Of a stretch of 55,863 nucleotides of DNA, positions 17,697 through 55,836 are shown piece after piece (positions within the stretch are counted from its first letter, which is position 1; each line of letters begins with the position of its first letter). The stretch comes from Candidatus Yonathbacteria bacterium (lineage in GTDB: Bacteria; Patescibacteriota; Minisyncoccia; Phycocordibacterales; UBA1550): positions 56,851 to 112,713 of the forward strand of contig DMXP01000002.1 in NCBI GenBank assembly GCA_003483855.1, read 5' to 3'. The notes under the pieces were generated by a model that saw only the letters and a list, made by a program, of their open reading frames with translations, made no database searches and was not told the origin of the DNA. Made by a program: the position numbers and the translations under genes.

Positions 17697-17767
17697 TGGG
17701 AGATCGTCTAATGGTAGGACAGCGGCCTTTGAAGCCGTCAATCTTGGTTCGATTCCAAGCCTCCCAG
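17697..17767 (+). tRNA. tRNA-Gln (anticodon UUG), CCA not encoded
   Basis: TGGGAGA-TC-GTCTAATGGTAGGAC-A-GCGGC-CTTTGAA-GCCGT-CAAT-CTTGG-TTCGATT-CCAAG-CCTCCCA-G cloverleaf. Confidence 0.95.
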
Positions 17768-17795
17768 CAATGAATATAAACCACCGATAGGGTGC

Positions 17796-17927
17796 CCTTT
17801 GAAGCCCGAATTTAAGTTTTTTACAAGCGAAGCGCTCCTTTATAAAAAAGCTGAAATTCGCGTCGCTGTGTTTCCCCTAGAAACACAAGGCGTGAACTAA
17901 TCTTGGTTCGATTCCAAGCCTCACAGC
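17796..17927 (+). repeat. Degenerate copy of the tRNA-Gln 3' half with a 92-nt hairpin-rich insert
   Basis: CCTTTGAAGCC (17796-17806) = 17726-17736; AATCTTGGTTCGATTCCAAGCCTCACAGC (17899-17927) = 17740-17768 at 28/29. Confidence 0.85.
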
Positions 17928-17969
17928 TTTGAGCGTGAACCGCTGTTCATATTTGCTATACTTAAGTAT

Positions 17970-18608
17970 ATGAACAAACGCCTTATCCTTTTCCTCTGCA
18001 TCGCAATAATAATTGCATTTCTATTTTGGTATTCAAGCGTTCTTCAGAGCGCGTTTTATACTATCGCGGGATACCTAAATACGCTCGCCGTAGAAAATGA
18101 GCTTCTCGCGATTTTTGTGTTTGTTCTAACGTCAGCTCTTGCCGCGCTTATCAGCCCTCTAACAAACATCCCACTTGTACCAATCGCGACATTAATTTGG
18201 GGGCCTATACCTACTATAATTTTTTTGCTCGCTGGATGGCTCATTGGCGACATCATTGCGTATCTCATTGGGCGCTACTATGGCTACAAGGTTGTTTCTT
18301 ATTTCGTATCAAAAGAAAAAGTTGATGATTGGAGCAGTATGGTCAAAAAACACACAACTTTTTCCACCGCTTTGCTTTTACGCGTCGCTCTTCCTGCCGA
18401 GCTTGGGTACGCGTTTGGCATCATTCGTTATCCGTTGAATTTATACATATTTATTACATTTCTCGCAGAGTTGCCGTTTGCTATTATTTCCACATATGCG
18501 AGCGAGGCAGTATTGCTTGGCGACGCTATGAAATTCTTTGGGCTCATAGGAATATTGTTTGTGGTCATCATTGTAGCGTTCCGCACGACACATTCGGATT
18601 TGGTATAA
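17970..18608 (+). CDS. VTT/DedA (TVP38/TMEM64-like) membrane protein
   Basis: Multi-TM; GDIIAYLIGRYYG and LLLRVALP..L.Y.FG pattern. Confidence 0.8.
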   Translation: MNKRLILFLCIAIIIAFLFWYSSVLQSAFYTIAGYLNTLAVENELLAIFVFVLTSALAALISPLTNIPLVPIATLIWGPIPTIIFLLAGWLIGDIIAYLIGRYYGYKVVSYFVSKEKVDDWSSMVKKHTTFSTALLLRVALPAELGYAFGIIRYPLNLYIFITFLAELPFAIISTYASEAVLLGDAMKFFGLIGILFVVIIVAFRTTHSDLV

Positions 18609-18615
18609 TTGGCGT

Positions 18616-18756
18616 ATGGACGCGCCTATCTCCCTAAAAAACTCAAATTCTAAGGTCATTTTGCACATAGACGGCGATGCGTTTTTTGTGGGTGTTGAAT
18701 GCGCAAAAAATCCTAAGTTAAAAGGTTTACCTGTGGTGACTGGAGAGGAGCGTTAA
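18616..18756 (+). pseudogene. dinB: Truncated 5' fragment (46 aa) of a Y-family polymerase allele
   Basis: MDAPISLKNSNS-KVILHIDGDAFFVGVECAKNPKLKGLPVVTGEER-stop; 34 codons protein-identical to the N-terminus of 20309-21553. Confidence 0.9.
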
Positions 18757-18797
18757 GAGTATTAATTAATATTGTCTTTTAATGTTATAACTCGTTT

Positions 18798-19359
18798 CCC
18801 TGTGGTCTCTGCCACAGGGACCTTGTAGGAAAGTCAGAAAACCCTCGGTTTTCTGATGTATACTGTGCCAATGACTCCACAAAAAGGTTACCACTGTGCA
18901 TACGATACCCACTACCACATCGTGTTTCCCGTAAAGTATCGTAAGGCACTGCTCTCCGACGACGTAACGAAAACCATTAAGGAAATTTCAAAAGGACTTG
19001 AAGAACGCTACGATTTAACCATTGAGCAAGTAGGATGCGACAGTGACCACATACACATGTTGGTTTCCATTCATCCAAAATATTCAATTGGTCAATTCGT
19101 ACGTCTCTACAAAAGCATCACCGCGAAGCAAGTCTTTTTGAAATTTCCTGAGGTAAAGAAAGACCTCTGGGGTGGAGAATTCTGGACAGATGGTTACTAT
19201 GTTGCAACCGTCGGAGAGAAGGCGAACTGGTCTATCGTAGAACGATACGTAAAGAATCAGGGGAAACACGATGAAAAGCCTCCCACACTATGGTAGACTG
19301 TTACTACTAACGAACTGCGTCATGGGCCCGGGTCATACCCTGTGGTCTCTGCCACAGGG
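18798..19359 (+). mobile_element. IS200/IS605-family element, tnpA only, with identical subterminal hairpins
   Basis: CCCTGTGG-TCTCTG-CCACAGGG at 18798-18819 and 19338-19359 flanks a Y1 transposase; exact ends lie a short, undetermined distance outside the hairpins. Confidence 0.88.
18871..19296 (+). CDS. tnpA: IS200/IS605 Y1 (HUH) transposase
   Basis: HYHIVFPVKYR, DHIHML (HUH), LWGGEFWTDGYYVATVG, catalytic Y in RYVKNQ. Confidence 0.95.
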   Translation: MTPQKGYHCAYDTHYHIVFPVKYRKALLSDDVTKTIKEISKGLEERYDLTIEQVGCDSDHIHMLVSIHPKYSIGQFVRLYKSITAKQVFLKFPEVKKDLWGGEFWTDGYYVATVGEKANWSIVERYVKNQGKHDEKPPTLW

Positions 19360-19383
19360 TTGTTGATTAGCCTAATAAACAAA

Positions 19384-20025
19384 ATGTTACGTTTTCAAAT
19401 ATTTAAAAAAAAACTACCAAAAGTCACCATAGAGTACAGCAAGCTGCTCGATTCTTTTTTTGTTTTTTACTGCCAAAATAAACCTGAATTAAAAAAAGGT
19501 TGGAGTGATTGGGCTCCTCTTCCTACAGATAAATTAATTGAGAATGTTGAACTATTTAGACAGGCTTGGGAAAAGGATGGAAAAAGGATGCTTCTGGAGG
19601 CCTGCAGTGTTCTTAATTTGGATTTTTCCAGAAATATCATTCCAGTTTATGTTGTTAGTGGAAGCCCAAGACCGTTCGGAGATCCGGTAGTTATTAGAGC
19701 TGATTTTGCAAGGCCAGATAGTTTTATAGATGTACTCGTCCATGAGCTGATACATGTACTATTTGCCGATAATCAAAAAAAAGTTCCATGGAGTATTCAT
19801 ATGGAGATGTTCCCCAATGAAAACCCTGATACACAGAACCATATTATTGTTCATGCAGTACTCAAGTATGTTTATTTAGATGTGTTGAAAGATCCAGAGA
19901 GACTACAAAGAGATGTCAATAGATCGGCAAAACACAGAAGTAGCGACTATGTGCGTGCATGGGAAATTGTAGAGCAATATGGATACCAGGAATTAATAAC
20001 TAAATTTCTGAGTAAATATAAATAA
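19384..20025 (+). CDS. Hypothetical protein with HExxH motif (zincin-like)
   Basis: DVLVHELIHVLF; start placed after the IS right hairpin. Confidence 0.6.
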   Translation: MLRFQIFKKKLPKVTIEYSKLLDSFFVFYCQNKPELKKGWSDWAPLPTDKLIENVELFRQAWEKDGKRMLLEACSVLNLDFSRNIIPVYVVSGSPRPFGDPVVIRADFARPDSFIDVLVHELIHVLFADNQKKVPWSIHMEMFPNENPDTQNHIIVHAVLKYVYLDVLKDPERLQRDVNRSAKHRSSDYVRAWEIVEQYGYQELITKFLSKYK

Positions 20026-20056
20026 AAACCTCTCCGCAGTAGACTGGGAGAGGTTT
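20026..20056. terminator. Hairpin between convergent ORFs
   Basis: AAACCTCTCC...GGAGAGGTTT 10-bp stem with inner CAGT/ACTG. Confidence 0.65.
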
Positions 20057-20076
20057 GTTGGTAGTGGCTGGTTGTC

Positions 20077-20169
20077 TTATCCTTGCTGGCTTCCGTCGCC
20101 GTCTGGCCCGTGCGGATCTGGATAGGATGGGGCATCCTTGTCATCGCCATACAATTTTTGCTTGCTCAT
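20077..20169 (-). CDS. 30-aa acidic peptide (MSKQKLYGDDKDAPSYPDPHGPDGDGSQQG)
   Basis: GAGGAG SD 6 nt upstream, TTGACG-N18-TACTAT promoter upstream, terminator hairpin downstream. Confidence 0.5.
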   Translation of the reverse strand: MSKQKLYGDDKDAPSYPDPHGPDGDGSQQG

Positions 20170-20308
20170 GATAAGCTCCTCTGGTTGTGGGTTCATCTGT
20201 TAGCGGACGCCAACAGTAATTATATAGTAGCATGTAATATGTGTGTTCGTCAAGTTGCTTTGCAATAAGGACGCACACCCCTATCATATTTGCTACAATA
20301 TGGGGTAA

Positions 20309-21553
20309 ATGAGCCCACAGACCACAAAAAATAAGGTCATTTTGCACATAGACGGTGATGCTTTTTTTGTGGGTGTGGAATGCGCAAAAAATCCTAAACT
20401 AAAGGGTTTGCCAGTAGTGACTGGCGAAGAGCGGGGAATTGTTTCAGCTCTTTCGTACGAAGCAAAGGCGCTTGGCGTTGTGCGTGGTATGTCGATATTT
20501 AAAATTAAAAAAGAATTCCCAAATGTCGTCGTCCTTCCGGGCGACTACAAATCGTACGTAGAGTATTCCAGCAAGATGTTTGAAATCGTAAACAGATACG
20601 CGTATGGCGTGGAGGAGTACAGCATTGACGAATGTTTTGCCGATGTTACTGGTTTGGATAGAACTCTCAAAAAAACTTACAGAGAAATTGCTGAAAAAAT
20701 TAAAAAGGAAATCGGTGACGAGCTCGGGATCTCGGTGTCCATTGGTCTCGCGCCAACAAAAGTTCTAGCGAAAGTTGCATCCAACTGGGTGAAGCCAAAT
20801 GGTCTGACAATAATTGACGCAAACACCGCAGGAGATTTTCTCGCCAAAGTGCCTATCGGAAAAGTGTGGGGGATAGGACCGAGAACTGCGGAGGTACTAA
20901 TACGCCGAGGCGCAAAAACAGCGCTTGATTTTCGCGAGAAGGATCTCCTGTGGGTAAAAAAGTGCCTGTCAAAACCTTATGTGGCAATTTGGCTGGAGCT
21001 AAACAGCGTTTTGGTTATGGGTGTGAACACAGAAGTAAAGAGCACATACTCCTCCATTCAAAAAACGCGAACGTTTCACCCTACGACAAATGATAAAGTT
21101 TTTCTGTGGTCGCAGATTTCAAAACACATAGAAGACGCGTGCCGAAAGGCGCGATATTACGAATTAACTCCAAAGAAAATTTCTATTTTTCTCAAGACAA
21201 ATGATTTCAAAATAGCATCTGCTTCAACCACGCTTCCATCGCCATCAAACTCGCCAGAAATATCTCTTTCACTCGCGCGCGAGCTGTTTAAAAAAATTCA
21301 CGCAAAGGGTATTTTGTACAGAACTGCAGGCGTAACACTGGAAGCCCTCACTGCCGATTTTACGCCTCATGCAGACTTGTTTGGAGAAACAGCAAAGGGT
21401 GACAAATTTGACCTCATACACAAGCAGATTGATTTTTTGGAGAACAAACTTGGCAAACGCGTAATTTACCTTGGTTCAACCAAGCAGGCTCTTGACCACA
21501 AAGAACTCGGTACAGATGCCGACGAGCTTGACCGCGATTTGCTGTTTTTGTGA
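20309..21553 (+). CDS. dinB: Y-family DNA polymerase (Pol IV/UmuC-like)
   Basis: HIDGDAFF, SALSYEAK, YSIDE catalytic motif, K.LAKVAS, VWGIGP, little-finger domain. Confidence 0.92.
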   Translation: MSPQTTKNKVILHIDGDAFFVGVECAKNPKLKGLPVVTGEERGIVSALSYEAKALGVVRGMSIFKIKKEFPNVVVLPGDYKSYVEYSSKMFEIVNRYAYGVEEYSIDECFADVTGLDRTLKKTYREIAEKIKKEIGDELGISVSIGLAPTKVLAKVASNWVKPNGLTIIDANTAGDFLAKVPIGKVWGIGPRTAEVLIRRGAKTALDFREKDLLWVKKCLSKPYVAIWLELNSVLVMGVNTEVKSTYSSIQKTRTFHPTTNDKVFLWSQISKHIEDACRKARYYELTPKKISIFLKTNDFKIASASTTLPSPSNSPEISLSLARELFKKIHAKGILYRTAGVTLEALTADFTPHADLFGETAKGDKFDLIHKQIDFLENKLGKRVIYLGSTKQALDHKELGTDADELDRDLLFL

Positions 21554-29693: not shown

Positions 29694-30926
29694 ATGCGAG
29701 TACTTATGTTCGGATGGGAATTTCCTCCTCATAACAGCGGTGGCCTAGGCACTGCGTGTTTTGGTCTTACTCGCGCGCTCGCCGGAAGGAAAATTGACGT
29801 CCTCTTTGTACTTCCAAAAAAAGTTGGCGTATCTGCGGACTTTATGAACATACTTTTTGCGGATACGCGCAAGGTAAAGTTTTTAGAAATTGAAACCCCG
29901 CTTAAACCGTATGTAACATCAGAGGGCTATATCCACGAACGCGACAAAATTCTCTCGGACATTTACGGAAACACTCTTATGCAGGAGGTTCGTCGCTATG
30001 CCCTTCGCGCTCGCGATATCGCAAAGAAAGAAAAGTTTGATGTGATTCACGCGCACGACTGGCTTTCTTTCCTTGCTGGAGTAGAGGCGAAAAAAGTTTC
30101 TGGCAAGCCTCTAATTCTTCATATGCACGCAACGGAGCTTGACCGCACTGGCGGACAAGGCGTGAATCAGGATGTTTACAAAATTGAACGCGAAAGTATG
30201 AACTACGCCGACGGCATTATCGCTGTTTCAAATTTCACTAAAGAAAAGATTGTTCAGCACTATGGTATTCCTAGAGAAAAAATTGAAGTGGTGCACAACG
30301 GCATTGATGAATGCGACTACGCGAATATTCCTGATAGACTTTCAGAGCTCAAAAAGTCGGGGCAAAAAATTGTCCTCTTTGCGGGGCGCATCACAATTCA
30401 AAAAGGACCTGAATATTTTATTCGCGCCGCGAAACGAGTACTTGAAGTAAATCCAAATGTTCTTTTTCTAGTCGCAGGCTCGGGCGATATGGAAAGGCAG
30501 ATGATGCTCGAAGCGGCGTACCTCGGTATTTCTGACCGAGTGCTCTTTGTAGGATTTCTTCGCGGGAATGATTTGAACGCGGTGTATAAAATTGCAGACC
30601 TGTTTGTGATGCCATCCGTATCAGAGCCATTTGGTATCACACCACTTGAGTCAATTATCTCTGGAGCTCCTGTTCTCATTTCAAAGCAGTCTGGTGTGGC
30701 GGAGGTGCTTACACACGCTTTGAAGACTGACTTTTGGGACACGGAAGACATGGCAAACAAAATTCTTGGTGTCATCTCGCACCGCTCACTTAAGGACACT
30801 CTCTGGGGAAACAGTCGTGAGGAGGTAAAGAAAATCAGCTGGGATACTGCAAGCAAAAAATGTATAGACTACTATGAAAAAATTATTTGCGCATGCGGAG
30901 TTACGCCAGAAACTCGCTACATTTAA
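29694..30926 (+). CDS. GT4 glycosyltransferase (alpha-glucan synthase-like)
   Basis: MRVLMFGWEFPPHNSGGLG, HAHDWL, GRIT.QKGPEYF, PSVSEPFGI. Confidence 0.88.
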   Translation: MRVLMFGWEFPPHNSGGLGTACFGLTRALAGRKIDVLFVLPKKVGVSADFMNILFADTRKVKFLEIETPLKPYVTSEGYIHERDKILSDIYGNTLMQEVRRYALRARDIAKKEKFDVIHAHDWLSFLAGVEAKKVSGKPLILHMHATELDRTGGQGVNQDVYKIERESMNYADGIIAVSNFTKEKIVQHYGIPREKIEVVHNGIDECDYANIPDRLSELKKSGQKIVLFAGRITIQKGPEYFIRAAKRVLEVNPNVLFLVAGSGDMERQMMLEAAYLGISDRVLFVGFLRGNDLNAVYKIADLFVMPSVSEPFGITPLESIISGAPVLISKQSGVAEVLTHALKTDFWDTEDMANKILGVISHRSLKDTLWGNSREEVKKISWDTASKKCIDYYEKIICACGVTPETRYI

Positions 30927-30950
30927 TTAGTTTCTGCTATACTGTTTTTT

Positions 30951-32186
30951 ATGGCGTCAATATGTTTTTATTTCCAAGTGCACCAGCCGTTCCGCGTAAA
31001 GGATTATCGCGTTTTTGATATTGGGCGAGACAGCGAGTACTTCAATGATAGTTCAGAGCGTTCCATAAACAACAAAAAGATTTTAAACAAAGTAGCGGGG
31101 AAGTGCTACCTACCTGCAAACGCAGTAATGCTTGAGCTTTTGAACAAGCATCCAGAATTCAAGATAAGCTTCTCTTTTTCTGGGATATTTTTGGACCAAC
31201 TTCAAGAGTTCAGCCCAGAAACATTGGAGTCATTTCAAAAACTTGTAGCAACAGGCCGAGTGGAAGTACTTTCAGAAACCTACTATCATTCGCTTTCATT
31301 CCTCTACTCGCCAGATGAGTTTCGCCGTCAGGTAAAAATGCACCGCGAAAAAGTACAAGAACTTTTTGGCGTCACACCAACAGTATTCCGCAACACTGAG
31401 CTTATATACAACAACGCGCTTGCGATGGAGGTAGAAAAAATGGGATACAAGGGGATAATTGCCGAGGGAGCAGATCATGTGCTCGGTTGGAGAAGCCCAA
31501 ACTTTTTATATCGCCCGCAAGGCACAGAAAATTTGAAGCTAATGCTAAAAAACTACCGTCTCTCCGACGACATCGCTTTTCGCTTTTCTTCAAAAGACTG
31601 GGCGGACTTTCCACTTACCGCTCCAAAATTTGCAAAGTGGGCATCTCAAGTTAATGGCAACGGGCACGTCATCAACCTCTTTATGGATTACGAAACATTT
31701 GGAGAACACCAGTGGGAAGACACAGGCATTTTTAATTTCCTTCGTCATTTGCCAGAAGAAATTTATAAGCATCCGGACAATGATTTTATAACACCGAGCG
31801 AAGCGATAGAACGATACGAGCCCGTGTCTGAGCTAGACGTGCACAACTATATGTCATGGGCAGACGTGGAACGCGACCTTTCCGCATGGCTCTCAAACCC
31901 AATGCAACACGATGCAATAAAGAGCGTGTACGCCCTTGAGGAAGAGGTGCTCGCCACAAATGATGAAAAGCTTATAAGCGACTGGCGCAAACTTCAAACG
32001 TCTGACCATTTCTATTATATGTGTACAAAATGGTTCAACGATGGCGATGTTCATAAATATTTTAACCCCTACAATACTCCATACGAAGCATTCATCGCGT
32101 ATATGAACGCTCTCCAAGACTTGCGTCTTCGTGTTGTTGGTCACCCAGCGTATGCAAAAAAGATAAAGGTAAAAGAGTTGTCATAA
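30951..32186 (+). CDS. Glycoside hydrolase family 57 (alpha-amylase type)
   Basis: FQVHQP, ETYYHSL, FRNTELIY, FMDYETFGEHQ, SDHFYYMCTK. Confidence 0.9.
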   Translation: MASICFYFQVHQPFRVKDYRVFDIGRDSEYFNDSSERSINNKKILNKVAGKCYLPANAVMLELLNKHPEFKISFSFSGIFLDQLQEFSPETLESFQKLVATGRVEVLSETYYHSLSFLYSPDEFRRQVKMHREKVQELFGVTPTVFRNTELIYNNALAMEVEKMGYKGIIAEGADHVLGWRSPNFLYRPQGTENLKLMLKNYRLSDDIAFRFSSKDWADFPLTAPKFAKWASQVNGNGHVINLFMDYETFGEHQWEDTGIFNFLRHLPEEIYKHPDNDFITPSEAIERYEPVSELDVHNYMSWADVERDLSAWLSNPMQHDAIKSVYALEEEVLATNDEKLISDWRKLQTSDHFYYMCTKWFNDGDVHKYFNPYNTPYEAFIAYMNALQDLRLRVVGHPAYAKKIKVKELS

Positions 32187-32268
32187 AATTTTTGTTTTGT
32201 CTGTTGTAAGTTGCGAATCAGCTGATTCGTGTCTTGGACATAAACGTTGTTAGTTGTATAATTATCAT

Positions 32269-34263
32269 ATGCCTAAGTCCCTTTCTCTTGGTAATGGAAA
32301 TATTCTTGTCTGCACCGACAAGCGCGCGCAGGTGCGTGACTTTTATTTTCCGTATGTGGGACTTGAGAACCATGTCGGCGGTCACTACACTCATCGTATA
32401 GGTGTGTGGGCGGACTATCAGCTCAACTGGTTTGATAACCCAAACTGGGATATACAAATTCGCTCGGCAGATCAGTCGCTACAGGGGGCTACTACAGCCA
32501 CAAATAGAACGCTTGGTGTAACTCTCAATCTAACCGACACTGTATACAATGAAAAAAATATTTTTCTCCGTGAAGTAAAAGTAACAAACGATTCCGACCG
32601 CAAGCGTTCAATCAAACTTTTCTTTGGACACGAGTTTGAAATATACGAATCCCACCGCGGAGACACAGCGTATTTTGACCCTATCAATCATGTCGTCGTT
32701 CATTACAACGGCAAGAGAGTTTTTCTTATAAACGGATTATCGGAAAAGGGAAGTTTTGACGATTACACCGCAGGGATATTTAAAATAGAAGGAAAAGAAG
32801 GAAGCTTCAAGGACGCAGAGGATGGCCAGCTTGCCAAAAACTTGATAGAACACGGCCCGGCAGATTCCGTTATGGGGTTTTACCTTGATATTCCCGCGAG
32901 TGAATCAAAAACTATTCATTACTGGGTTGCTGTTGGAAAATCCATGAAGGAGGCGCAGGAGCTAAACAAATACGTTTTAGAAAAAAATCCTGGTCATTTG
33001 CTCCGCACCACTCGCGATTTTTGGCATGCGTGGGTAAATAAATACAATTTTACTTTTTACGGACTCACACAGGACGAAATCTCATTGTTCAAAAGATCAC
33101 TCCTAACCATTCGCACGCACGCAGACAACCACGGAGCAATTATTGCCTCTGCGGATTCGGATATGCTTCAAAACGGTCGTGATACATACAGCTATATGTG
33201 GCCCAGAGACGGAGCGTTTTCAGCTATTGCGTTTGATATGGCGGGGGATTTTAATGTTGCAGAACGTTTTTTTGATTTCTGCAATCATGTGCTCACTGAC
33301 GACGGGTATTTTATGCACAAATATCGCCCAGACGAATCGCTTGGCTCCTCTTGGCACCCATGGATGAGAGACGGCAAAATAGAACTCCCGATACAAGAAG
33401 ACGAAACGGCGTTGGTTCTTATAGCTCTTTGGCATCATTACGCTCAGACAAAGGATTTGGAGTTCATTGAAAAAATTTATAATTCTCTGATAAAGCGTTC
33501 AGCTGATTTTATGGTCGGATATCGCGACCCAAAAACACAGCTCCCTAAAGCATCGTACGATTTGTGGGAAGAAAAATTCGGTATTCACACATTTACTTCC
33601 GCGTCGGTTTACAGTGCTCTTATGTGTGCCGCAAAATTTGCAAAACTTTTGGGCAAAGAAAAGAGCGAACATATTTACACTACAGCCGCCTTTGAAATTC
33701 GCCAATCCATACTCAACTATTTGTATGATGAAGAGCAGGGAATTTTTGTAAAAATGATAAATGTTGCTGACGATGGAACAATTACCTACGACCGCACACT
33801 TGATATGTCCAGCGTGTACGGCATCTTTGCGTTTGGTGTTCTTGATGTGGAGGATCCTCGTTTGGCTCGTACTGTAAAACAGGTAGAGGACAGACTTTTA
33901 ATAAAAACTGCCGTAAGCGGTATTGCTCGTTACGAAGGGGACATCTATTTCCGCGACACAACTGGCGTGCCGGGGAACCCATGGATTATTACCACGCTCT
34001 GGCTCGCTCAGTATTATATAGCTCGAGCAAAAAAGGAGGCGGATTTTACCCCCGTGCATCAGTGGCTAGAATGGGCTGTTAAGCACGCAGGTTCTTCGGG
34101 AGTATTTTCTGAGCAACTTCACCCATACAGCGGAGAGCTTCTTTCCGCAACGCCTCTTACGTGGAGCCACTCGGAATATATTATGACCATCGTAAAATAC
34201 CTGGACAAATTGGAGGAACTGGGAATTTGCCTAAAGTGCAACCCGATGTATACGGAGAGTTAG
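32269..34263 (+). CDS. Glycoside hydrolase family 15 (glucoamylase-like)
   Basis: GAIIAS.D, YSYMWPRDG, QEDETA, DLWEE, ARYEGD.Y, SEQ, PLTWSH. Confidence 0.88.
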   Translation: MPKSLSLGNGNILVCTDKRAQVRDFYFPYVGLENHVGGHYTHRIGVWADYQLNWFDNPNWDIQIRSADQSLQGATTATNRTLGVTLNLTDTVYNEKNIFLREVKVTNDSDRKRSIKLFFGHEFEIYESHRGDTAYFDPINHVVVHYNGKRVFLINGLSEKGSFDDYTAGIFKIEGKEGSFKDAEDGQLAKNLIEHGPADSVMGFYLDIPASESKTIHYWVAVGKSMKEAQELNKYVLEKNPGHLLRTTRDFWHAWVNKYNFTFYGLTQDEISLFKRSLLTIRTHADNHGAIIASADSDMLQNGRDTYSYMWPRDGAFSAIAFDMAGDFNVAERFFDFCNHVLTDDGYFMHKYRPDESLGSSWHPWMRDGKIELPIQEDETALVLIALWHHYAQTKDLEFIEKIYNSLIKRSADFMVGYRDPKTQLPKASYDLWEEKFGIHTFTSASVYSALMCAAKFAKLLGKEKSEHIYTTAAFEIRQSILNYLYDEEQGIFVKMINVADDGTITYDRTLDMSSVYGIFAFGVLDVEDPRLARTVKQVEDRLLIKTAVSGIARYEGDIYFRDTTGVPGNPWIITTLWLAQYYIARAKKEADFTPVHQWLEWAVKHAGSSGVFSEQLHPYSGELLSATPLTWSHSEYIMTIVKYLDKLEELGICLKCNPMYTES

Positions 34264-38264: not shown

Positions 38265-38624
38265 TTAGATAAGCCCGGGGAGTTGCTTTGTTTCTCCTTT
38301 CGCGACGAGCTCCTCTATACAGTTAAACTCAGTGCAAACATTTTCAAAATAATCAAAGGCTTCTGTTTTTGCGCACGAAACAACGTAACCTCTGAGCGCG
38401 ACAGCCATCTTTGGAGTAAACATTGCCGATCTTCCAAACCAGTTTTCAAAATTCTTCGGGTCTGGTGGTGGTGAGTTAGGTAGTGATATTTTCATATCAA
38501 CAGAAGGACCTTTTAACGAGAGCTTAACGTACTGTAATCCTCGCTCTTCGTGTTCTTTTTGCAGCCAGTTGCAAAATTTAAGTATTTCAGGGTAGTGATT
38601 ATCAGCCAGCGACTCAGTGTTCAT
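38265..38624 (-). CDS. Hypothetical protein (119 aa)
   Basis: Start MNTESL chosen from AGGAGG SD 5 nt upstream; TTGACA promoter upstream. Confidence 0.65.
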   Translation of the reverse strand: MNTESLADNHYPEILKFCNWLQKEHEERGLQYVKLSLKGPSVDMKISLPNSPPPDPKNFENWFGRSAMFTPKMAVALRGYVVSCAKTEAFDYFENVCTEFNCIEELVAKGETKQLPGLI

Positions 38625-38815
38625 AACGTCCTCCTTTATCTGATTATTTAAATGTATCCTCCCTAAAACTACCATTCTATGGTATATTGTCAACCTTACC
38701 GTTATGTCTACATTTAAAATAAAATCAGATTGGCCTCCAGTAGGGGACCCCAGTACCATATCCTCGCAAGGCTCGGCTAGCTACGGGGCGAGAAGTTGTA
38801 TAACAACTTTAACGT

Positions 38816-40873
38816 ATGAATCCTAACATCTTCAAAATAAAAGCGCCGTTTCCTCCGAATGGGGACCAACCAAAGGCGATTAAGGAGCTTTTGACTGGGC
38901 TTAAAAAAGGGATGCGCGCGCAGACTTTGCTTGGTGTTACCGGCTCCGGAAAAACTTTTACGATGGCGAATGTCATTGCTTCTGTCGGCAAACCGACACT
39001 TGTCATCGCGCACAACAAAACCCTCGCCGCGCAGTTAGCGCAAGAGTACAAGGAATTCTTCCCCGACAATGCGGTGCACTACTTTGTTTCTTACTACGAC
39101 TACTATCAGCCAGAGGCGTATATGCCGACGACGGACACATATATAGAAAAGGACGCGCAGATTAACGAGGAAATTGACCGCCTACGTCACGCATCCACGC
39201 AGGCGCTCCTTACTCGCAAGGATGTGATTATCGTTGCCTCTGTTTCGTGTATTTATGGCTTGGGTTCACCCGCAGAATACGAAAAGGAAAATATGAAGCT
39301 TTTGTCGGGCCAAAAAATTGACCGTAAGTCGCTCATGCAGAAGCTCATCAACATTCACTTCACACGTACGAACGCCGACCTTACCCCCGGAACATTTCGC
39401 TCTATCGGCGCTCTTATAGAAATAATGCCAGTATCAGAAAAGATAGTGTGGAGTATCACAATGGGTCGCACTTCAACGGACACTGCGCGACATGATTCTG
39501 CAGAATCAGGCATTGAGTCAATCAACAAAGTTGACCCAGTATCACAGAAAATCGTAGACACTCCGGAATCAATTTTTATTTTCCCCGCAAAACACTTCAT
39601 AACCAATGAAGCTGAAAAATCGCGCGCAATAAAAGTTATTAAAAAAGAGCTGGACACTCAACTAAAGAAATTTGAGAAGGAGGGGAAGCTACTTGAGGCT
39701 GAAAGATTAAAGCGTCGCACCACGTACGACTTGGCTATGATTCGCGAAGTTGGCTACTGTAGTGGCATAGAGAACTATTCAAGGCATATGTCTGGGCGTA
39801 GCGCAGGCTCTGCTCCTGATACGCTTTTGTCGTACTTCCCAAAAACTAAAGACGGAGACCCTGACTTCCTAACTATCATAGATGAATCACACGTAACAAT
39901 TCCACAAATAGGCGGAATGTACGCAGGCGATCAATCGCGCAAAAAAACTCTTGTGGAGTTTGGCTTTCGTTTGCCTTCTGCAATAGATAACCGACCACTT
40001 CGTTCCGAGGAATTTCACGAGCGCGTTGGGCAAATGATTTTTACATCCGCAACGCCATCCGTATATGAAAAAGAAAATAGCGAACAGGTTGTGGAGCAAG
40101 TAATTCGTCCAACAGGCCTAATTGATCCTGAGATTTCTATTCGCCCGATATTGGAGAAAGGGCATTACAAAGGACAAATTCAGGACCTCATCGCTGAAAC
40201 AAAAATTGCTGTTTCAAAAGGTGGACGCGTGATAGCAACAACCCTTACTAAAAAAATGGCTGAGGACCTTTCAGAATATTTAAAAGGAGAGGGAATCAAG
40301 GCTGAGTATGTGCATAGCGACATCAAAACATTAGAACGTATCCAAATCCTAACCGCATTCAGAAAGGGTACTTTTGACTGCCTCGTGGGTGTAAACCTAC
40401 TCCGAGAAGGCCTAGACCTGCCAGAAGTAACACTCATTGGGATTCTTGACGCAGACAAAGAGGGTTTCCTTCGTTCAGAAACATCGCTTATTCAGATTAT
40501 TGGTCGCGCGGCGCGAAACGTAGAAGGACGTGTAATTTTGTATGCGGAAAAAATTACTGGTTCTATTGAGCGCGCGGTTTCCGAAACAAGTCGCCGTCGC
40601 GCTATTCAGGTTGCCTACAACAAAGAGCACGGCATAACCCCAAAAACTATCATCAAACAAATCAAGGACATCACCGAGCATCTAGAAACAGACCATATGA
40701 AAGCAGTGCGAATGAATTTGGACATTGACGCCCAAGTATTTATAAAAGACCCCCAAAAACTATTGAAATTAAAAGAAAAAGAAATGTCTAAAGCGGTAAA
40801 GGAGCTGGATTTTGAAACCGCAGCAATCTTAAGAGATGAAATCGCAATGCTTAGAGAGCAACTTTTGAAATAA
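38816..40873 (+). CDS. uvrB: Excinuclease ABC subunit B
   Basis: GDQPKAI, GVTGSGKT, YYDYYQPEAY, DESH, NLLREGLDLPEV, C-terminal UVR (FETAA.LRD). Confidence 0.97.
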   Translation: MNPNIFKIKAPFPPNGDQPKAIKELLTGLKKGMRAQTLLGVTGSGKTFTMANVIASVGKPTLVIAHNKTLAAQLAQEYKEFFPDNAVHYFVSYYDYYQPEAYMPTTDTYIEKDAQINEEIDRLRHASTQALLTRKDVIIVASVSCIYGLGSPAEYEKENMKLLSGQKIDRKSLMQKLINIHFTRTNADLTPGTFRSIGALIEIMPVSEKIVWSITMGRTSTDTARHDSAESGIESINKVDPVSQKIVDTPESIFIFPAKHFITNEAEKSRAIKVIKKELDTQLKKFEKEGKLLEAERLKRRTTYDLAMIREVGYCSGIENYSRHMSGRSAGSAPDTLLSYFPKTKDGDPDFLTIIDESHVTIPQIGGMYAGDQSRKKTLVEFGFRLPSAIDNRPLRSEEFHERVGQMIFTSATPSVYEKENSEQVVEQVIRPTGLIDPEISIRPILEKGHYKGQIQDLIAETKIAVSKGGRVIATTLTKKMAEDLSEYLKGEGIKAEYVHSDIKTLERIQILTAFRKGTFDCLVGVNLLREGLDLPEVTLIGILDADKEGFLRSETSLIQIIGRAARNVEGRVILYAEKITGSIERAVSETSRRRAIQVAYNKEHGITPKTIIKQIKDITEHLETDHMKAVRMNLDIDAQVFIKDPQKLLKLKEKEMSKAVKELDFETAAILRDEIAMLREQLLK

Positions 40874-40876
40874 GAA

Positions 40877-40910
40877 AATAGCGGTAACGATATATATCGT
40901 TACCGCTATT
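40877..40910. terminator. 34-bp perfect palindrome between convergent uvrB and the barrel gene
   Basis: AATAGCGGTAACGATAT|ATATCGTTACCGCTATT. Confidence 0.75.
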
Positions 40911-40922
40911 GAATGACCCTGT

Positions 40923-41591
40923 CTATTTGAATTCATAAACGAGTATAGCTGAAAAAATGCTAAATGCTCCAGTTCTTTGCCCTTCAAACCTGAGTGATAT
41001 TTTGTTTGGAAACTTAGCGTCTACTCCAACGCTTATCATTGGAGTAGTTCCTCTGTACTTGCTTTCATCTGCCAGAAAGGTTGATGTGTCCGGGAGTAAA
41101 ATCCTGGTGGTCGTTTTTACGTTATATTCATAAAAACCAACTCTCCCAAATATATCAACATAATCACTGGCGGGTAATTTCAATAATGCAGATAATTGTG
41201 ACGCCGTAACATCTGCATCCTGTCGAACAAAAATATTCGCAGGCAGGGCGTTAAAATTTACTGCTGACCCGTTAACATTTATAACACCTATGCCTGTATT
41301 ATTAATTGAGAGACTTTTACTAAAGCGAGCTCCCCACAAATATGCTGCCTCTATGCAAAAAATCTCATTCCAACAGCGACCAAGAGCTAACGATTTGTAC
41401 GTCGTTTTATTCTTTATATCTGAATTATTAATGATACCCGTAGCGTTTGAAATCTGCTTTTCGGTGTCTGACTGCCTGAATGTGTTGAGGACTGCCATCT
41501 GCCCAACACCGATACTACCTGTCCAGATTGCTTCTGCATGAACATGCATTGGCAACAAAAGAACAATTACAAATACAAGATACTTTTTCAT
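40923..41591 (-). CDS. OmpA-like 8-stranded outer-membrane beta-barrel protein
   Basis: Sec signal peptide (..VHA|EA); strand pattern KSLALGRCWNEIFCIEAAY, LSALLKLPASDYVDIFGRVG, ISVGVDAKFPNKISLRFE, C-terminal LVYEFK. Confidence 0.7.
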   Translation of the reverse strand: MKKYLVFVIVLLLPMHVHAEAIWTGSIGVGQMAVLNTFRQSDTEKQISNATGIINNSDIKNKTTYKSLALGRCWNEIFCIEAAYLWGARFSKSLSINNTGIGVINVNGSAVNFNALPANIFVRQDADVTASQLSALLKLPASDYVDIFGRVGFYEYNVKTTTRILLPDTSTFLADESKYRGTTPMISVGVDAKFPNKISLRFEGQRTGAFSIFSAILVYEFK

Positions 41592-41717
41592 CTTGACCCC
41601 CTATTTGTATTTTAAGAAGATTTCCTTGCTAAATAGGATACTATCACAAATGACCATGCTCAACAACAGCAATTGCCATAATTAAGAAAATCTGGTATAC
41701 TATGTACCTTATTCACT

Positions 41718-44282
41718 ATGGCTGAAAATAAAAAAAATAAGCATCTCGACAAAATCACAGTCCGCGGTGCTCGCACACACAATCTGAAAAACATCAGCGT
41801 AGAGATGCCACGCAACAAAATGATAGTTTTTACTGGACTCTCGGGATCTGGTAAATCATCGCTTGCTTTTGACACCATCTTTGCAGAGGGTCAGCGTCGT
41901 TACGTTGAGTCTCTTTCGGCATACGCAAGACAGTTTTTGAATCAGATGCAGAAGCCCGATGTGGATGAAATCACAGGTCTTTCTCCATCTATTTCCATAG
42001 ACCAAAAATCCCACTCATCGAACCCACGTTCTACAGTGGCAACCATCACCGAAGTATACGACTACCTTCGTGTGCTTTACGCGCGCATTGGTAAACCACA
42101 CTGTCTGGTCTGTGGACAGGAAATCAAGCGTCTTGGTACCGAGGAAATTATTAATTTCATAATGGATGAGATGAAGGGCGATTCGGGGAAAAAGGCATCT
42201 TCCATCCGTATCTTTGCTCCGCTTGTTCGAGGACGCAAGGGAGAATATTATCAGCTTCTTTATGATCTATTAAGCAAAGGATATTTGATGGTGCGCGTGG
42301 ATGGGGTGATGCATAATCTCCGTGAGAAAATTGAACTTTCAAAAACAAAGAAGCATGAGATTGATGTACTAGTGGATGAAATTCTACTTGCAGATTTTAA
42401 AGGAAAAGAAAAAGGGAGAGAGCGTCTCGGTGAAGCAGTAGAGAAAGCTATAGATGAATCGCAAAGTTTGGTTCGCATTGTGCTATCAAATGCAAAGGGT
42501 GATATTAAGGACTTTATAATGTCTAACCGCTTTGCCTGTCCAAACGACGGTTTTTCATACCCTGAAATAGAGCCGAGACTTTTTTCATTCAATTCCCCAT
42601 ACGGCGCATGCTCTCTTTGTAACGGGCTTGGTACAAAGCATTTTTTTGGGAACGAAAAATGTCCAGACTGCGACGGAGCGCGTCTTCGAAAAGAAGCGCT
42701 CAATGTTTTTGTGAGCGGAAAAAATATTGTTGAGCTCGTAAACATGTCCATTCAAGACGCATCTGATTTTTTCGCTACATTGAAAATCTCTGCGAGAGAT
42801 CGCGACATTTCTGTGCCAGTGGTTAAGGAAATCCAGAATCGTCTTTCATTTATGTTGGAAGTGGGCTTGAGCTATCTCACACTCAGCCGTCGCGCTGGGA
42901 CGCTCTCGGGGGGAGAGGGTCAGCGTATTCGACTTGCGTCACAGCTTGGTTCCCGTCTTGTCGGAGCTCTCTATGTTTTGGACGAGCCAACAATAGGACT
43001 TCATCAGCGCGACAACGACCGCCTCATCAAAACTCTCAAGGAGCTTCGCGATATAGGCAACACAATCATTGTGGTTGAACACGACGAGGATACTATTTTC
43101 GCTGCTGACTATATGGTGGACATTGGCCCTGGCGCTGGTGTGCACGGAGGAGAAATAGTAGTTTCAGGCGACTTGGACGAAATCATAACTAACACAAAAA
43201 AATACAAATCGCTCACGCTTGATTATTTGCGTGGAGATATTTCTGTACCAATTCCAAAAAGACGCGATACTGACAAAGGGCATCTTCGCATTCGCGAAGG
43301 TAGTATTTTTAACATCAAACGAATGAACGCCGATATTCCACTTGGAAAACTTGTTGCTATAACAGGCGTTTCCGGCTCTGGAAAGTCAACCTTTATGTAT
43401 GAATTAATACATAGAAACTTGCAGGCTCGACTAGAGTTTAAGTATCGGACCAATGATATTTTTAATTGTGAGAGTTTTACAGGGACAGAATACCTAGCAC
43501 GCACAGTCTTGATAGATCAGTCAGCCATTGGTCGCACGCCACGTTCTAATCCTGCAACCTATACTGGAGCATTTACATTTATTCGCGATCTTTTTTCTGA
43601 AACAGCCGAGGCACGTTTGCGTGGGTGGGGGCCGGGTCGTTTTTCATTCAACGTAAGGGGTGGGCGATGCGAAACATGCCAAGGAAACGGAACTATTGCT
43701 GTGGAGATGCATTTTTTGCCTACAGTGTACGTGACCTGTGACGTATGCCGTGGCAAACGTTTTGAAAAAGATACGCTTGAAATTAAATATAAAAAGAAGA
43801 ATATTTACGAGGTGCTTGAAATGAACGTGGAACAAGCATTGGATTTTTTTATAGACATTCCAGCAATTTATGACCGACTAAAGACGCTTAATGATGTTGG
43901 GCTTGGATACTTAAAACTTGGACAATCCGCAACGACGCTTTCTGGAGGGGAGGCACAGCGTGTTAAAATTTCTTCTGAACTCTATCGTCCGCATGTAGAA
44001 AAAACTATTTATCTACTTGATGAGCCAACAGTCGGTCTTCACTACGAGGATGTTCGAAAACTAATTGAGATTTTACAAAAACTTGTTGATAAAGGAAATA
44101 GTGTAATCCTTATTGAACATAATATGGATGTTATTAAAAGCGCGGATTATGTTATAGACATTGGCCCTGAAGGGGGAGAAGGTGGTGGACAAATTGTTGC
44201 GCGTGGGACCCCTGAGCAAATTGCCACGAGTCCGCTTTCTCACACAGGAAAGTATCTGAAAAAAGTACTAAAAAGAAAATGA
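41718..44282 (+). CDS. uvrA: Excinuclease ABC subunit A (insertion domain missing)
   Basis: GARTHNLKN, GLSGSGKSSLAF, LSGGEGQR, GVSGSGKST, LSGGEAQR. Confidence 0.97.
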   Translation: MAENKKNKHLDKITVRGARTHNLKNISVEMPRNKMIVFTGLSGSGKSSLAFDTIFAEGQRRYVESLSAYARQFLNQMQKPDVDEITGLSPSISIDQKSHSSNPRSTVATITEVYDYLRVLYARIGKPHCLVCGQEIKRLGTEEIINFIMDEMKGDSGKKASSIRIFAPLVRGRKGEYYQLLYDLLSKGYLMVRVDGVMHNLREKIELSKTKKHEIDVLVDEILLADFKGKEKGRERLGEAVEKAIDESQSLVRIVLSNAKGDIKDFIMSNRFACPNDGFSYPEIEPRLFSFNSPYGACSLCNGLGTKHFFGNEKCPDCDGARLRKEALNVFVSGKNIVELVNMSIQDASDFFATLKISARDRDISVPVVKEIQNRLSFMLEVGLSYLTLSRRAGTLSGGEGQRIRLASQLGSRLVGALYVLDEPTIGLHQRDNDRLIKTLKELRDIGNTIIVVEHDEDTIFAADYMVDIGPGAGVHGGEIVVSGDLDEIITNTKKYKSLTLDYLRGDISVPIPKRRDTDKGHLRIREGSIFNIKRMNADIPLGKLVAITGVSGSGKSTFMYELIHRNLQARLEFKYRTNDIFNCESFTGTEYLARTVLIDQSAIGRTPRSNPATYTGAFTFIRDLFSETAEARLRGWGPGRFSFNVRGGRCETCQGNGTIAVEMHFLPTVYVTCDVCRGKRFEKDTLEIKYKKKNIYEVLEMNVEQALDFFIDIPAIYDRLKTLNDVGLGYLKLGQSATTLSGGEAQRVKISSELYRPHVEKTIYLLDEPTVGLHYEDVRKLIEILQKLVDKGNSVILIEHNMDVIKSADYVIDIGPEGGEGGGQIVARGTPEQIATSPLSHTGKYLKKVLKRK

Positions 44283-46742: not shown

Positions 46743-47462
46743 ATGTCTGACCAGTCTGGTAGGTTTGTATTCTTATCACGCGATACCGAAATAGAGTTGT
46801 TGAAAAAAGAAATACAGCAACTTCATTTACGATACGAAGATGCGCTTACATCCTTACGTTCTACAATTCTTGAACTCGAGGAATCAAGACGAAGAGCAAG
46901 GATGCTTGAACAGGAGGTAAAGGAAACAAGGAAACTTGCAGTTTACGACAATCTCACAAACCTATTTTCGCGGTATGAGATGGAAGGGCAGATTAACCAC
47001 CATTTTTCGCTTCTTTTACGAGCCGAACATATGATGGAAAAAGGGAAGCTCACTCAAACCGAACCGGAGCATTTTTCGATTTTGTTTATAGACCTTGACG
47101 GCTTCAAGGAAATCAACGATACACATGGGCACCAGTGTGGAGATCGCGCTCTAAGAACTTTCTCTTCCTTGCTCAAACAATCTTTTCGTGAGGCTGACAT
47201 TATATCCCGATGGGGCGGTGATGAATTCGTTGTGTTGCTTCCCGGCGTAAATCGCGAAAAGACTGTAAAGATTATCAGTGTGTTGCAAGACAATCTGACG
47301 AACGTGTCTATCCCTTGCGACGATGGCTCATATATTCCTTTGAGAGCCTCAATCGGGATTGCTTCTACTTCAGAAATAAGCGCGCCACGAACACTCGAAG
47401 AAATGATCAAGCGCGCCGACAATGAAATGTACACAGAAAAAACTAACAATCGTGGAAAATAA
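46743..47462 (+). CDS. Diguanylate cyclase (coiled coil plus GGDEF)
   Basis: D.LT.L, DLDGFK.IND.HGH..GD, RxxD I-site (READ), RWGGDEF, SIG, AD..MY..K; AGGAGG SD. Confidence 0.9.
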   Translation: MSDQSGRFVFLSRDTEIELLKKEIQQLHLRYEDALTSLRSTILELEESRRRARMLEQEVKETRKLAVYDNLTNLFSRYEMEGQINHHFSLLLRAEHMMEKGKLTQTEPEHFSILFIDLDGFKEINDTHGHQCGDRALRTFSSLLKQSFREADIISRWGGDEFVVLLPGVNREKTVKIISVLQDNLTNVSIPCDDGSYIPLRASIGIASTSEISAPRTLEEMIKRADNEMYTEKTNNRGK

Positions 47463-54340: not shown

Positions 54341-54603
54341 GTTAAATATTCTACCATTTCAACATTCACGAATCAACAGGTTCGCATCTTGGATACTATT
54401 CAATATTAAATAGCGACACGACCCCACAATGTACGTATAATATACTATTCTCAAATAAGTGAGAGAAATACAAACACGGAGTTTGTATTTCTGAGCGAAC
54501 GCAGAGAATATTGTACCCAGTTATATCGGACAAATACGTACATAGGGGGAATATTTACTCAACATGTTTGACCAGACCCTCAACTTTTGCGATACTACAG
54601 AAG

Positions 54604-55836
54604 ATGAAACTTAAAATACCTGTTAGCAAGCCATTTATTATCGCAATTTCAGTTATTGCGCTCGTGGGGGCGTATAGTCTGGGTATCCAATCTGGGCTGG
54701 AAAAATCCGCGGTCACAAATGCTTCAAAAAACACGATAGCAACGTCCTCAGATATTTTGGACCTCGCGCCTTTTTGGAAAACCATTGAGACGCTCAACGA
54801 GCGATTTGTCGCAACAACTGCTTCTTCGTCTGCTCCTACAAACAAGGAAAAAGTGTACGGAGCAATAGAAGGCCTCACAGCATCATACGGCGACCCATAC
54901 ACTATTTTTTTTCCACCAAAGGAGACGACGGCTTTTGAGGAGGAGGTGCGCGGAAGTTTTGAAGGTGTTGGAATGGAAATAGCGATTAAAGACAAAGTAC
55001 TCACAGTTGTGGCTCCTCTAAAAAACACGCCCGCAGAACGAGCAGGGATTCAACCAGGCGATCAGATTTTGAAAATTGACAAGCTCTACACTGGCGGAAT
55101 GACAGTAGAGGAAGCAATCAAACATATTCGCGGGCCACGCGGAACGACAGTTACGCTCGCTATAAAACGAAACGGTGGAATTGAGGATATCAAAGTGACT
55201 CGCGATGTCATTAATATTCCAACAATAGACACGAAGCTTCGCGATGACGGCGTGTTTGTAATCTCTCTCTACAATTTCTCCGCAAACTCCGCAAGCCTCT
55301 TCCGCGATGCGCTTCGCGAGTTTATTCAGTCTGATTCTGACAAGCTTGTGCTTGACCTTCGCAATAACCCTGGTGGATATCTAGAGTCCGCTGTTGATAT
55401 GGCAAGCTTCTTCCTTCCATTAGGCAAAACAGTAGTCATTGAAGACTCTGGCGCGAGTGTAAAACAAAAAGCAGAGAGAAGCGCGGGTTATGATGTGTTT
55501 ACTGAAAACCTAAAAATGGTGATTATTATCAACGAAGGCTCGGCGTCAGCATCTGAAATTCTCGCAGGAGCTCTCCACGAGCACGGCATAGCAAAGCTTG
55601 TCGGTGAAAAAAGTTTTGGAAAAGGTTCGGTGCAAGAGCTTATTGAAATCACGTCAGAAACCTCGCTCAAAGTTACTATAGCTCGTTGGCTCACTCCAAA
55701 AGGTAAATCAATTTCTGAAAATGGACTTGAACCAGATGTAAAGATAGAACTAACTGAAAAGGATATTGAGAAGAAACTTGACCCGCAAATGGACAAGGCG
55801 GTCGCGATGTTATTGGACCCAGCATTTAAACGCTAA
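54604..55836 (+). CDS. ctpA: S41 family C-terminal processing protease with PDZ
   Basis: GDPYT, FEGVGMEI, PAERAGI..GD, LDLRNNPGG, SASASEI, SFGKGSVQ. Confidence 0.93.
   Translation: MKLKIPVSKPFIIAISVIALVGAYSLGIQSGLEKSAVTNASKNTIATSSDILDLAPFWKTIETLNERFVATTASSSAPTNKEKVYGAIEGLTASYGDPYTIFFPPKETTAFEEEVRGSFEGVGMEIAIKDKVLTVVAPLKNTPAERAGIQPGDQILKIDKLYTGGMTVEEAIKHIRGPRGTTVTLAIKRNGGIEDIKVTRDVINIPTIDTKLRDDGVFVISLYNFSANSASLFRDALREFIQSDSDKLVLDLRNNPGGYLESAVDMASFFLPLGKTVVIEDSGASVKQKAERSAGYDVFTENLKMVIIINEGSASASEILAGALHEHGIAKLVGEKSFGKGSVQELIEITSETSLKVTIARWLTPKGKSISENGLEPDVKIELTEKDIEKKLDPQMDKAVAMLLDPAFKR

Follow-up and report, generated by a model that had tools for sequence, protein, structure and literature searches.

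A predicted OmpA-like β-barrel encoded at a variable locus downstream of uvrA in a clade of Patescibacteria

Introduction

How does a gene for an OmpA-like β-barrel, a class of protein that belongs to the outer membrane, come to lie in a lineage regarded as having none? The question is raised by a small gene in a 55,863-nucleotide stretch of DNA from Candidatus Yonathbacteria bacterium (GenBank assembly GCA_003483855.1, contig DMXP01000002.1, positions 56,851 to 112,713), here called the window; positions given below are those of the window unless another contig or locus is named. A reading of the letters alone had proposed that this gene, placed antisense between uvrB and uvrA, encodes an outer-membrane barrel that was taken from a diderm host or its phage and possibly repurposed. 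This proposal is referred to below as the original prediction. The coordinates and strands of the three genes agree with the antisense placement.

Bacteria that belong to the candidate phyla radiation (CPR) are treated as lacking, or as having lost, an outer membrane (PMC10160955; PMC12102498; PMC12329446). In reviews, the loss is assigned to the stem from which CPR and Chloroflexota descend (PMC12329446; PMC8871954). Ultrasmall cells from groundwater, imaged by cryogenic transmission electron microscopy (cryo-TEM), displayed a periodic surface layer and no outer membrane, and were attached to Gram-negative hosts (PMC7906910). No report of OmpA-class barrels in Patescibacteria, Parcubacteria or Yonathbacteria was found in the literature, and those GenBank homologues that have displayed names are called 'hypothetical protein'.

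Results

Sequence and family of the barrel protein

The open reading frame runs on the minus strand from an ATG at 41591 to a stop codon at 40923–40925 and encodes 222 residues. The sequence elements on which the original prediction had been based were all found in the translation: LPASDYVDIFGRVG at residues 139–152 matches LPxxDxxxxFGRxG, GVDAKFPNKISLRFE at residues 189–203 matches GVxxxFxxxxxxRxE, the Cys pair occurs in RCWNEIFC at residues 72–79, and the C-terminal end is VYEFK, with the extra Lys. The N-terminus reads MKKYLVFVIVLLLPMHVHA followed by EA. Judged by eye, it consists of MKK, a 12-residue hydrophobic core and VHA before EA, an n/h/c arrangement as in Sec signal peptides; the cleavage site would be V-H-A, and a lipobox Cys is absent. 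The same pattern is kept in 25/25 family members, consistent with the cleavable signal peptide first proposed.

Searches with Pfam profiles placed the protein in known barrel families. OMP_b-brl (PF13505) matched with 32.1 bits (curated cut-off 28.7, E 1.6e-7) and OmpA_membrane (PF01389) with 31.0 bits (curated cut-off 21, E 2.5e-7). Both scores exceed the curated cut-offs, so that the family match is well beyond chance. In NCBIfam, OmpA was matched below threshold only. Pfam gave no match to the peptidoglycan-binding domain OmpA_C (PF00691) at E up to 10, and none to the Ail_Lom or Opa profiles. Within the aligned family set of 25 members, to which the family-wide counts below refer, 24 match OmpA_membrane and 20 match OMP_b-brl. 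A search of PDB sequences with the profile of the 25 relatives retrieved OmpA chains at E 3e-5.

Fold and membrane character

The structure was predicted in two AlphaFold2 runs (9 and 25 aligned sequences), which gave the same topology with mean predicted local distance difference test scores (pLDDT) of 79.4 and 83.2 and predicted template modelling scores of 0.68 and 0.73. A signal helix (residues 2–16) is followed by eight main strands, at residues 21–34, 53–74, 78–98, 118–140, 145–165, 172–194, 198–207 and 210–221, and pLDDT exceeds 90 in the belt, beside the short turns. When compared with the PDB using Foldseek, the model best matched OmpA (9fzd_A, E 2.7e-10, template modelling score 0.77 normalised by target; also 1qjp and 1bxw), and thereafter Ail (E 8.6e-7) and OmpX (E 1.2e-5). 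We infer closure of the barrel by eight antiparallel strands because of these matches to known barrels. With an eight-stranded barrel in the models and Pfam matches above cut-off, a non-barrel fold was not borne out.

The strands carry the dyad pattern of a membrane barrel. In each strand, four to five outward positions are hydrophobic in 88–100% of the 25 sequences, and together these positions make up a belt (W23/I27/V29, L68/L70/W74, F78/I80/Y84, V145/I147/V151/F153, I186/V188/V190/A192, L200/F202 and A215/L217/Y219/F221). The alternating inward positions are mostly G and S, together with E81, R150, R201 and E203, and by alignment comparison the inward charged residues share local motifs with the interior charges of OmpA. 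The original prediction had allowed for folding as a soluble barrel. The conserved, lipid-facing belt makes this unlikely, and the soluble form was rejected as a candidate. An OmpA-type membrane β-barrel is instead upheld by sequence, fold and belt alike.

Strands 2–6 are 21–23 residues long in the models, so about half of each would extend past a bilayer. At the opposite end, Cys73 and Cys79 should face each other across hairpin 2–3 and, going by the models, are likely to form a cross-strand disulfide. The CX5C pair is present in eight of the 25 aligned members, all of type A (one of two paralog types, described below), and in three more distant relatives. The first long loop is variable except at a near-invariant residue, Glu44 (codon 41460–41462, minus strand), which lies in a short predicted helix and is at least 90% invariant in both paralog types. 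This residue may indicate a contact that is conserved, functional or plug-like in kind.

A barrel of this size could also be a secreted protein, attacking membranes in the manner of a toxin or bacteriocin or shuttling lipids, instead of a structural protein of the surface. The eight-stranded proteins OmpW and PagP handle hydrophobic molecules, and the near-invariance of Glu44 in loop 1 is a hint that a site is conserved there. The interior, however, is lined with charged and small residues as in OmpA, unlike the hydrophobic channel of OmpW, structural comparison ranks OmpA, Ail and OmpX first, and no catalytic motif was found in the protein. A secreted function thus appears quite improbable, even though CPR bacteria are without fatty acid synthesis of their own and may take host lipids (PMC7906910; PMC7242380), lipid acquisition from hosts having been raised as a possibility by the authors of the first study and lysolipids having been reported as enriched in CPR in the second.

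Provenance of the contig and selection on the gene

Independent assemblies of groundwater samples yielded 12 contigs, up to 394 kb long, that carry the identical barrel protein with identical flanks. A gene order of L21-RmuC-GGDEF-YqeY-uvrC-x-uvrA-[barrel]-uvrB-x-TGT-DHFR-malic enzyme recurs among relatives. The order over 20 kb matches that of LCHR01000003 (Parcubacteria group bacterium GW2011_GWA1_44_13), of DNMN01000044 (Candidatus Yonathbacteria UBA12043) and of a 129-kb contig of a Candidatus Paceibacterota metagenome-assembled genome, and matches were also found in GCA_964350485.1 and GCA_030649835.1. In the NCBI taxonomy, Yonathbacteria belong to the Parcubacteria and Patescibacteria groups. 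When the whole window was annotated with Pfam, ordinary small-genome housekeeping genes were identified and none for BamA, lipopolysaccharide (LPS), Lol, Tol-Pal or secretin functions; a lone POTRA domain is of the FtsQ type. By the gene order of named genomes, the contig belongs to a Patescibacterium of Parcubacteria/Yonathbacteria type. A diderm contig was not borne out, and misassembly was likewise rejected on the strength of the 12 independent contigs and the shared CPR gene order.

The gene is evolving under constraint, yet far faster than its neighbours. Five type A orthologues are exactly 222 codons each, with zero indels. Between the window and its relative L007, the nonsynonymous divergence (dN) is 0.26 for the barrel gene versus 0.03 for uvrA and uvrB. 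The ratio of dN to synonymous divergence (dN/dS), here a rough measure, lies at 0.06–0.2 in all pairs for which dS could be estimated, indicating purifying selection and excluding the neutral decay that had been considered at the outset. Divergence is distributed unevenly over the protein, with identities in the belt and in the projecting part of 62% versus 43% among close relatives and 38% versus 19% family-wide; dN outside the belt is about 1.5 times that of the belt. As far as can be read from sequence comparison, the protein is functional and its rate of change is several-fold that of its neighbours; in addition, old paralogs have been differentially retained or replaced.

These data bear on whether the gene is an artefact, either a misassembled or misbinned fragment of a diderm genome or a dead transferred gene. 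Its GC content is slightly below that of the window (0.389 versus 0.435), a point in favour of such an artefact. Against this, the gene and flanks are identical in the independent contigs, nine other genomic contexts have this locus occupied too, the reading frames are intact under purifying selection, and the Shine–Dalgarno sequence, promoter-like element and terminator are conserved. An artefact or decaying gene is therefore very improbable indeed. The comparisons indicate instead a real, expressed-looking gene, intact and of CPR origin, at a fixed locus and diverging fast under purifying selection.

A variable locus downstream of uvrA

The family is rare. It comprises 3–10 protein clusters among 5.8 billion proteins, and a scan with a narrower alignment found one family locus among 185,579 species genomes and four in Joint Genome Institute (JGI) metagenomes. 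A profile search of 1.84 billion representatives returned 336 matches, 40 of them at E ≤1e-10. In nearly all members with readable flanks, down to E 5e-13, the gene lies directly downstream of uvrA, and mostly in the gap between uvrA and uvrB. One more distant genome has it in the related L21-RmuC-YqeY neighbourhood instead, and one further member (L024) is on a short contig without recognisable marker genes around it. Barrel genes downstream of uvrA occur in at least nine distinct genomic contexts, with one copy or two in tandem per locus. In the 56-kb window, the family hidden Markov model found this gene alone and no second copy.

Two paralog types could be distinguished. Type A includes the window gene and mostly has the Cys pair, while type B is 224–243 residues long. 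The two share 22–27% identity, a distance equal to that from generic diderm OMP_b-brl proteins. Their arrangement varies between relatives, and barrel identity to the window falls away while the flanking UvrA and UvrB remain similar (Table 1).

Table 1. Identity of locus proteins to those of the window, and barrel gene content
Locus	UvrA	UvrB	Barrel	Barrel genes
Window				single A or A-like
L007, L015, L019	95%	91%	60–61%	A and B in tandem (L007)
L020	94%	94%	58%	
L014	94%	95%	55%	A and B in tandem
L021	97%	91%	38%	single A or A-like
L022	92%	86%	34%	single A or A-like
L025	93%	none within 10 kb fetched	28%	A and B in tandem
L016	86%	82%	26%	B alone
L026	92%	90%	undetectable at E 1e-3	single A or A-like

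In L007 and L014, the type A gene is followed on its 3′ side by the same hairpin as in the window, and the type B gene comes next. The sequence after the gene A terminator (L007 10670–10839, L014 3126–3295) contains a near-consensus promoter for gene B, TTGACT-N17-TATTAT, an inverted-repeat leader and a strong Shine–Dalgarno sequence. No type B gene or remnant was found at 40874–40922 of the window, though the terminator hairpin is kept.

At L025 (GCA_030649835.1, JAUSES010000073), the region downstream of both barrel genes, at the usual place of uvrB, contains a run of genes (11500–20630) for a helicase, HATPase_c_3, an N6_N4 methyltransferase, a Metallophos/Pua-like protein and a BpsA_C/N6-adenine methylase. 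By its gene content this run resembles a defence island, and the gap that follows uvrA is apparently a hotspot for integration.

Origin of the family

Acquisition from a diderm host was the source first proposed for the gene. As a recent single import, this is contradicted by the clade-restricted A/B family, present clade-wide in at least nine contexts at a fixed site downstream of uvrA. Given that distribution, any transfer from a diderm must be older than the diversification of the clade. At E of about 1e-12 and weaker, the family passes gradually into ordinary diderm OMP_b-brl proteins, and one distant relative carries the source name 'opacity protein-like surface antigen'. No donor lineage could be named from the cluster searches, which gave 3, 6 and 9 clusters, and the profile search, in which the stronger members with marker-gene flanks were all from the same CPR neighbourhood. 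Because of the narrow distribution, an old diderm transfer into the ancestor of the clade would be the simplest account, and retention from a diderm ancestor of CPR would be less likely.

The alternative source in the original prediction, a phage, found no support. A scan of IMG/VR identified no phage relatives. PHROG gave no match for type A and, for type B, a match to Lom at E 0.014 only. Matches in BFVD were to generic phage-encoded barrels at the level of the fold, with about 10% identity.

C-terminus of the barrel

The extra Lys after the terminal Phe had been taken as a deviation of this protein. It is present, though not unique: five of five close type A orthologues end in K, and the C-termini of the sub-clade to which the window protein belongs are EFK, KIK, RIK and NIK, the four closest orthologues ending in IK. 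In the nearest relatives, the type B copies have F-Q/K-L as their last residues. The alignment thus identifies the Lys as a sub-clade trait and suggests that the terminal aromatic residue is eroding in this sub-clade. Such erosion would fit a relaxed requirement for recognition by the β-barrel assembly machinery (BAM). A gene for an S41 C-terminal processing peptidase with a PDZ domain is also present in the window (54511–55836, plus strand); any link to the C-terminal Lys would be conjectural.

Family-wide, the canonical end ...Y-x-F with terminal Phe is kept in 14 of 25 members. This retention, together with a belt conserved despite 20–25% identity, is as expected of a BAM substrate, and raises the alternative that the clade possesses a bilayer resembling an outer membrane, along with an insertase of BAM type. 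In that case the gene would encode a normal outer-membrane protein, either retained from a diderm ancestor or acquired together with its machinery. Few CPR lineages have had their envelopes imaged (PMC12329446; PMC8871954). Confinement of the family to one narrow clade, however, is more in keeping with acquisition than with ancient retention, the clade DNA read contained no gene for outer-membrane biogenesis, and the groundwater CPR cells seen by cryo-TEM were without an outer membrane (PMC7906910). A cryptic diderm envelope is thus an unlikely explanation.

Placement and role of the barrel

The account that we favour, and hold tentatively, is that the gene product is a recognition or adhesion barrel, lipid-embedded and fast-evolving, exposed on the surface of the symbiont's own envelope. 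The protein would be exported via Sec and would fold as a lipid-embedded eight-stranded protein of the OmpA/OmpX/Ail/Opa class, with about 10 residues of each strand making the conserved hydrophobic belt. Five of the eight strands would extend as long, polar and more variable hairpins to some 3–4 nm above the membrane surface. The barrel would be placed in some lipid-containing layer outside the cytoplasmic membrane. Of the candidate membranes, a lipid-containing outer layer of the symbiont itself is most likely, ranking above the outer membrane of a partner and a true outer membrane with BAM, and assembly there would proceed without a recognised BAM. By likeness to Opa, Ail, OmpX and OmpA, the barrel may act as an adhesin or receptor, involved in partner-cell contact, used by phages as a receptor and pressed to change, or both. 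Either role would explain the accelerated divergence.

Several points weigh against this account. The adhesin or receptor role is drawn by analogy with Opa, Ail and OmpA. We know of no CPR membrane that could hold such a barrel. In diderms, BAM inserts barrels of this kind from the periplasm into the outer membrane, and genes for BamA, LPS, Lol and Tol were not found in the window and the clade flanks fetched, which represent a small part of the genomes. The window protein ends in F-K and its closest relatives in I-K, weakening the canonical C-terminal signal. The dN/dS values are made rough by saturation of dS (proportion of synonymous differences, pS, 0.55–0.85), likewise seen in several flanking genes, yet are far from neutral.

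The same belt and divergence could serve a barrel that leaves the cell. As an exported effector or anchor, it would be put into the outer membrane of a Gram-negative host as a mooring point, channel or decoy. Small eight-stranded barrels fold into lipid without BAM in vitro. A complete lipid-facing belt is kept in the family, fast divergence fits a host-specific interaction, and CPR-sized groundwater cells without an outer membrane attach to Gram-negative hosts (PMC7906910). Insertion from outside, though, must cross the LPS leaflet and push long polar hairpins through the bilayer; moreover, no delivery system was linked to the locus in the flanks read, and no host is known. This use of the barrel is of low probability, and placement in the symbiont's own envelope is preferred.

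One published observation on such envelopes may be noted. Both an ultrasmall groundwater cell and its Gram-negative host had an outermost layer for which a 3.2-nm periodicity was reported (PMC7906910, Fig. 5). By our own estimate, this spacing is within the size range of small β-barrels; for the barrel described here it is no more than a lead.

Expression signals and flanking genes

The features of the gene and its immediate flanks are listed in Table 2. The original prediction had given the gene its own promoter and Shine–Dalgarno sequence. The latter was confirmed. For the promoter, a consensus scan of the minus strand upstream of the gene found no sigma-70 site, the extended −10-like element being below the scan threshold. 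That element has counterparts at the same distance in L007 (TGCTAGCAT) and L014 (TGTTAGCAT), so that TGnTAG(T/C)AT and the Shine–Dalgarno sequence are kept at equal spacing in three lineages. This conservation supports a promoter belonging to the barrel gene itself. For uvrA, a sigma-70-like site was found at 41673–41701. The 49-bp gap between the barrel stop codon and the end of uvrB is taken up by the hairpin.

Table 2. Features of the barrel gene and its flanks in the window
Feature	Positions	Strand	Basis or remark
OmpA-like eight-stranded β-barrel gene, type A paralog	40923–41591 (stop included)	−	open reading frame, Pfam, AlphaFold2, Foldseek against PDB
Signal peptide, residues 1–20 (MKKYLVFVIVLLLPMHVHAE), predicted cleavage after VHA	41532–41591	−	sequence reading, AlphaFold2 helix 2–16, pattern in 25/25 members
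RCWNEIFC, residues 72–79; Cys73/Cys79 around first periplasmic-side turn, strands 2–3	41355–41378	−	DSSP of AlphaFold2 models
Last strand, residues 210–222 (FSIFSAILVYEFK), β-signal-like motif plus one Lys after Phe	40926–40964	−	
Shine–Dalgarno sequence AGGGGG, 5 nt 5′ of ATG	41597–41602	−	AGGGGGT in L007 and L014
Extended −10-like element TGATAGTAT, candidate promoter of barrel gene	41638–41646	−	sequence reading, cross-lineage conservation
Hairpin with 15-bp stem, terminator-like, probably bidirectional	40877–40910	.	between convergent barrel gene and uvrB
uvrB, conserved flank	38816–40873	+	Pfam families; 82–95% identity to relatives
uvrA, conserved flank, divergent from barrel gene	41718–44282	+	Pfam families; 86–97% identity to relatives

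Elsewhere in the block, a GGDEF-domain protein (46743–47462, plus strand) has 34–36% identity to its syntenic L007 counterpart, and a small hypothetical protein adjoining uvrB (38265–38759, minus strand) has 34%. Neighbouring genes are 83–98% identical to those of L007. The low identities point to two further fast-evolving genes. The window also contains an IS200-type Y1 transposase gene (Pfam Y1_Tnp; 18856–19296, plus strand) near a tRNA gene (17697–17767), and a glycogen-type cluster (29694–34263, plus strand) of Glyco_transf_5/GT4, GH57 and GH15 genes, followed by those for a ROK kinase and malic enzyme, which is kept in relatives.

Discussion

Barrels of the OmpA class are taken to come as a package with BAM and the outer membrane. 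This package serves as a marker for counting outer-membrane losses, and CPR are entered among the lineages in which a loss took place. A barrel family that is under selection throughout a CPR clade would mean either that an outer lipid layer has been kept or regained, or that such barrels can be used without BAM. Either outcome would alter how these markers are read. The broader proposition is that this clade of Patescibacteria assembles barrels without BAM or a conventional outer membrane, in a lipid-poor layer of its own or in the outer membrane of a Gram-negative partner, and has diversified them at a hypervariable locus for host recognition. We consider this somewhat unlikely as a whole. 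Were it true, a lineage of monoderm type would for the first time be seen to use OmpA-class barrels, and BAM-independent assembly would have a natural case. For an uncultured Parcubacteria lineage, the barrel would be a testable candidate molecule for contact between symbiont and host or with phage, and the fixed, hypervariable uvrA–uvrB locus is convenient for typing strains and studying host association in groundwater metagenomes.

Comparison with known systems

An envelope made largely of β-barrels has a precedent of a kind, by analogy only, in the Thermotogae. These bacteria have BamA. Their 'toga' is a sheath, an envelope layer largely of β-barrels with little lipid, and toga-bearing Thermotogae lie on the Terrabacteria side of the tree (PMC10160955).

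In fold, the closest known system is the transmembrane domain of OmpA from E. coli and Klebsiella (PF01389; 1BXW, 1QJP, 9FZD, 2K0L), which likewise has a signal peptide and eight antiparallel strands. The motifs with inward charges correspond (IEAAY versus FEMGY, FGRVG versus YTRLG, RFE versus RLE), although identity is only about 15–17%. Unlike OmpA, the window barrel ends with strand 8 and has no OmpA_C domain, its strands 2–6 are much longer, hairpin 2–3 carries a Cys pair, and its organism is a Patescibacterium without a known outer membrane.

In architecture, the barrel is like OmpX, Ail, Lom and the Opa proteins of Neisseria (COG3637), which are stand-alone barrels of about 200 residues with protruding hairpins. 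It resembles this class, too, in having a surface part more variable than the belt (43% versus 62% identity among close relatives), and in being multi-copy and fast-evolving. Type A differs from Ail, Lom and Opa in having no detectable sequence similarity to them and no evidence of phase variation. With the generic proteobacterial OMP_b-brl proteins (PF13505) there is a continuous gradation in profile searches, for example through P0043 and P0047–P0050, which end in ...YKF or ...WRF. The CPR members examined are set apart from these (22–27% identity) by sharing one chromosomal neighbourhood. In fold and family the barrel gene is classical. It departs from the classical in its lineage, in its missing membrane context and in having a hypervariable locus dedicated to it.

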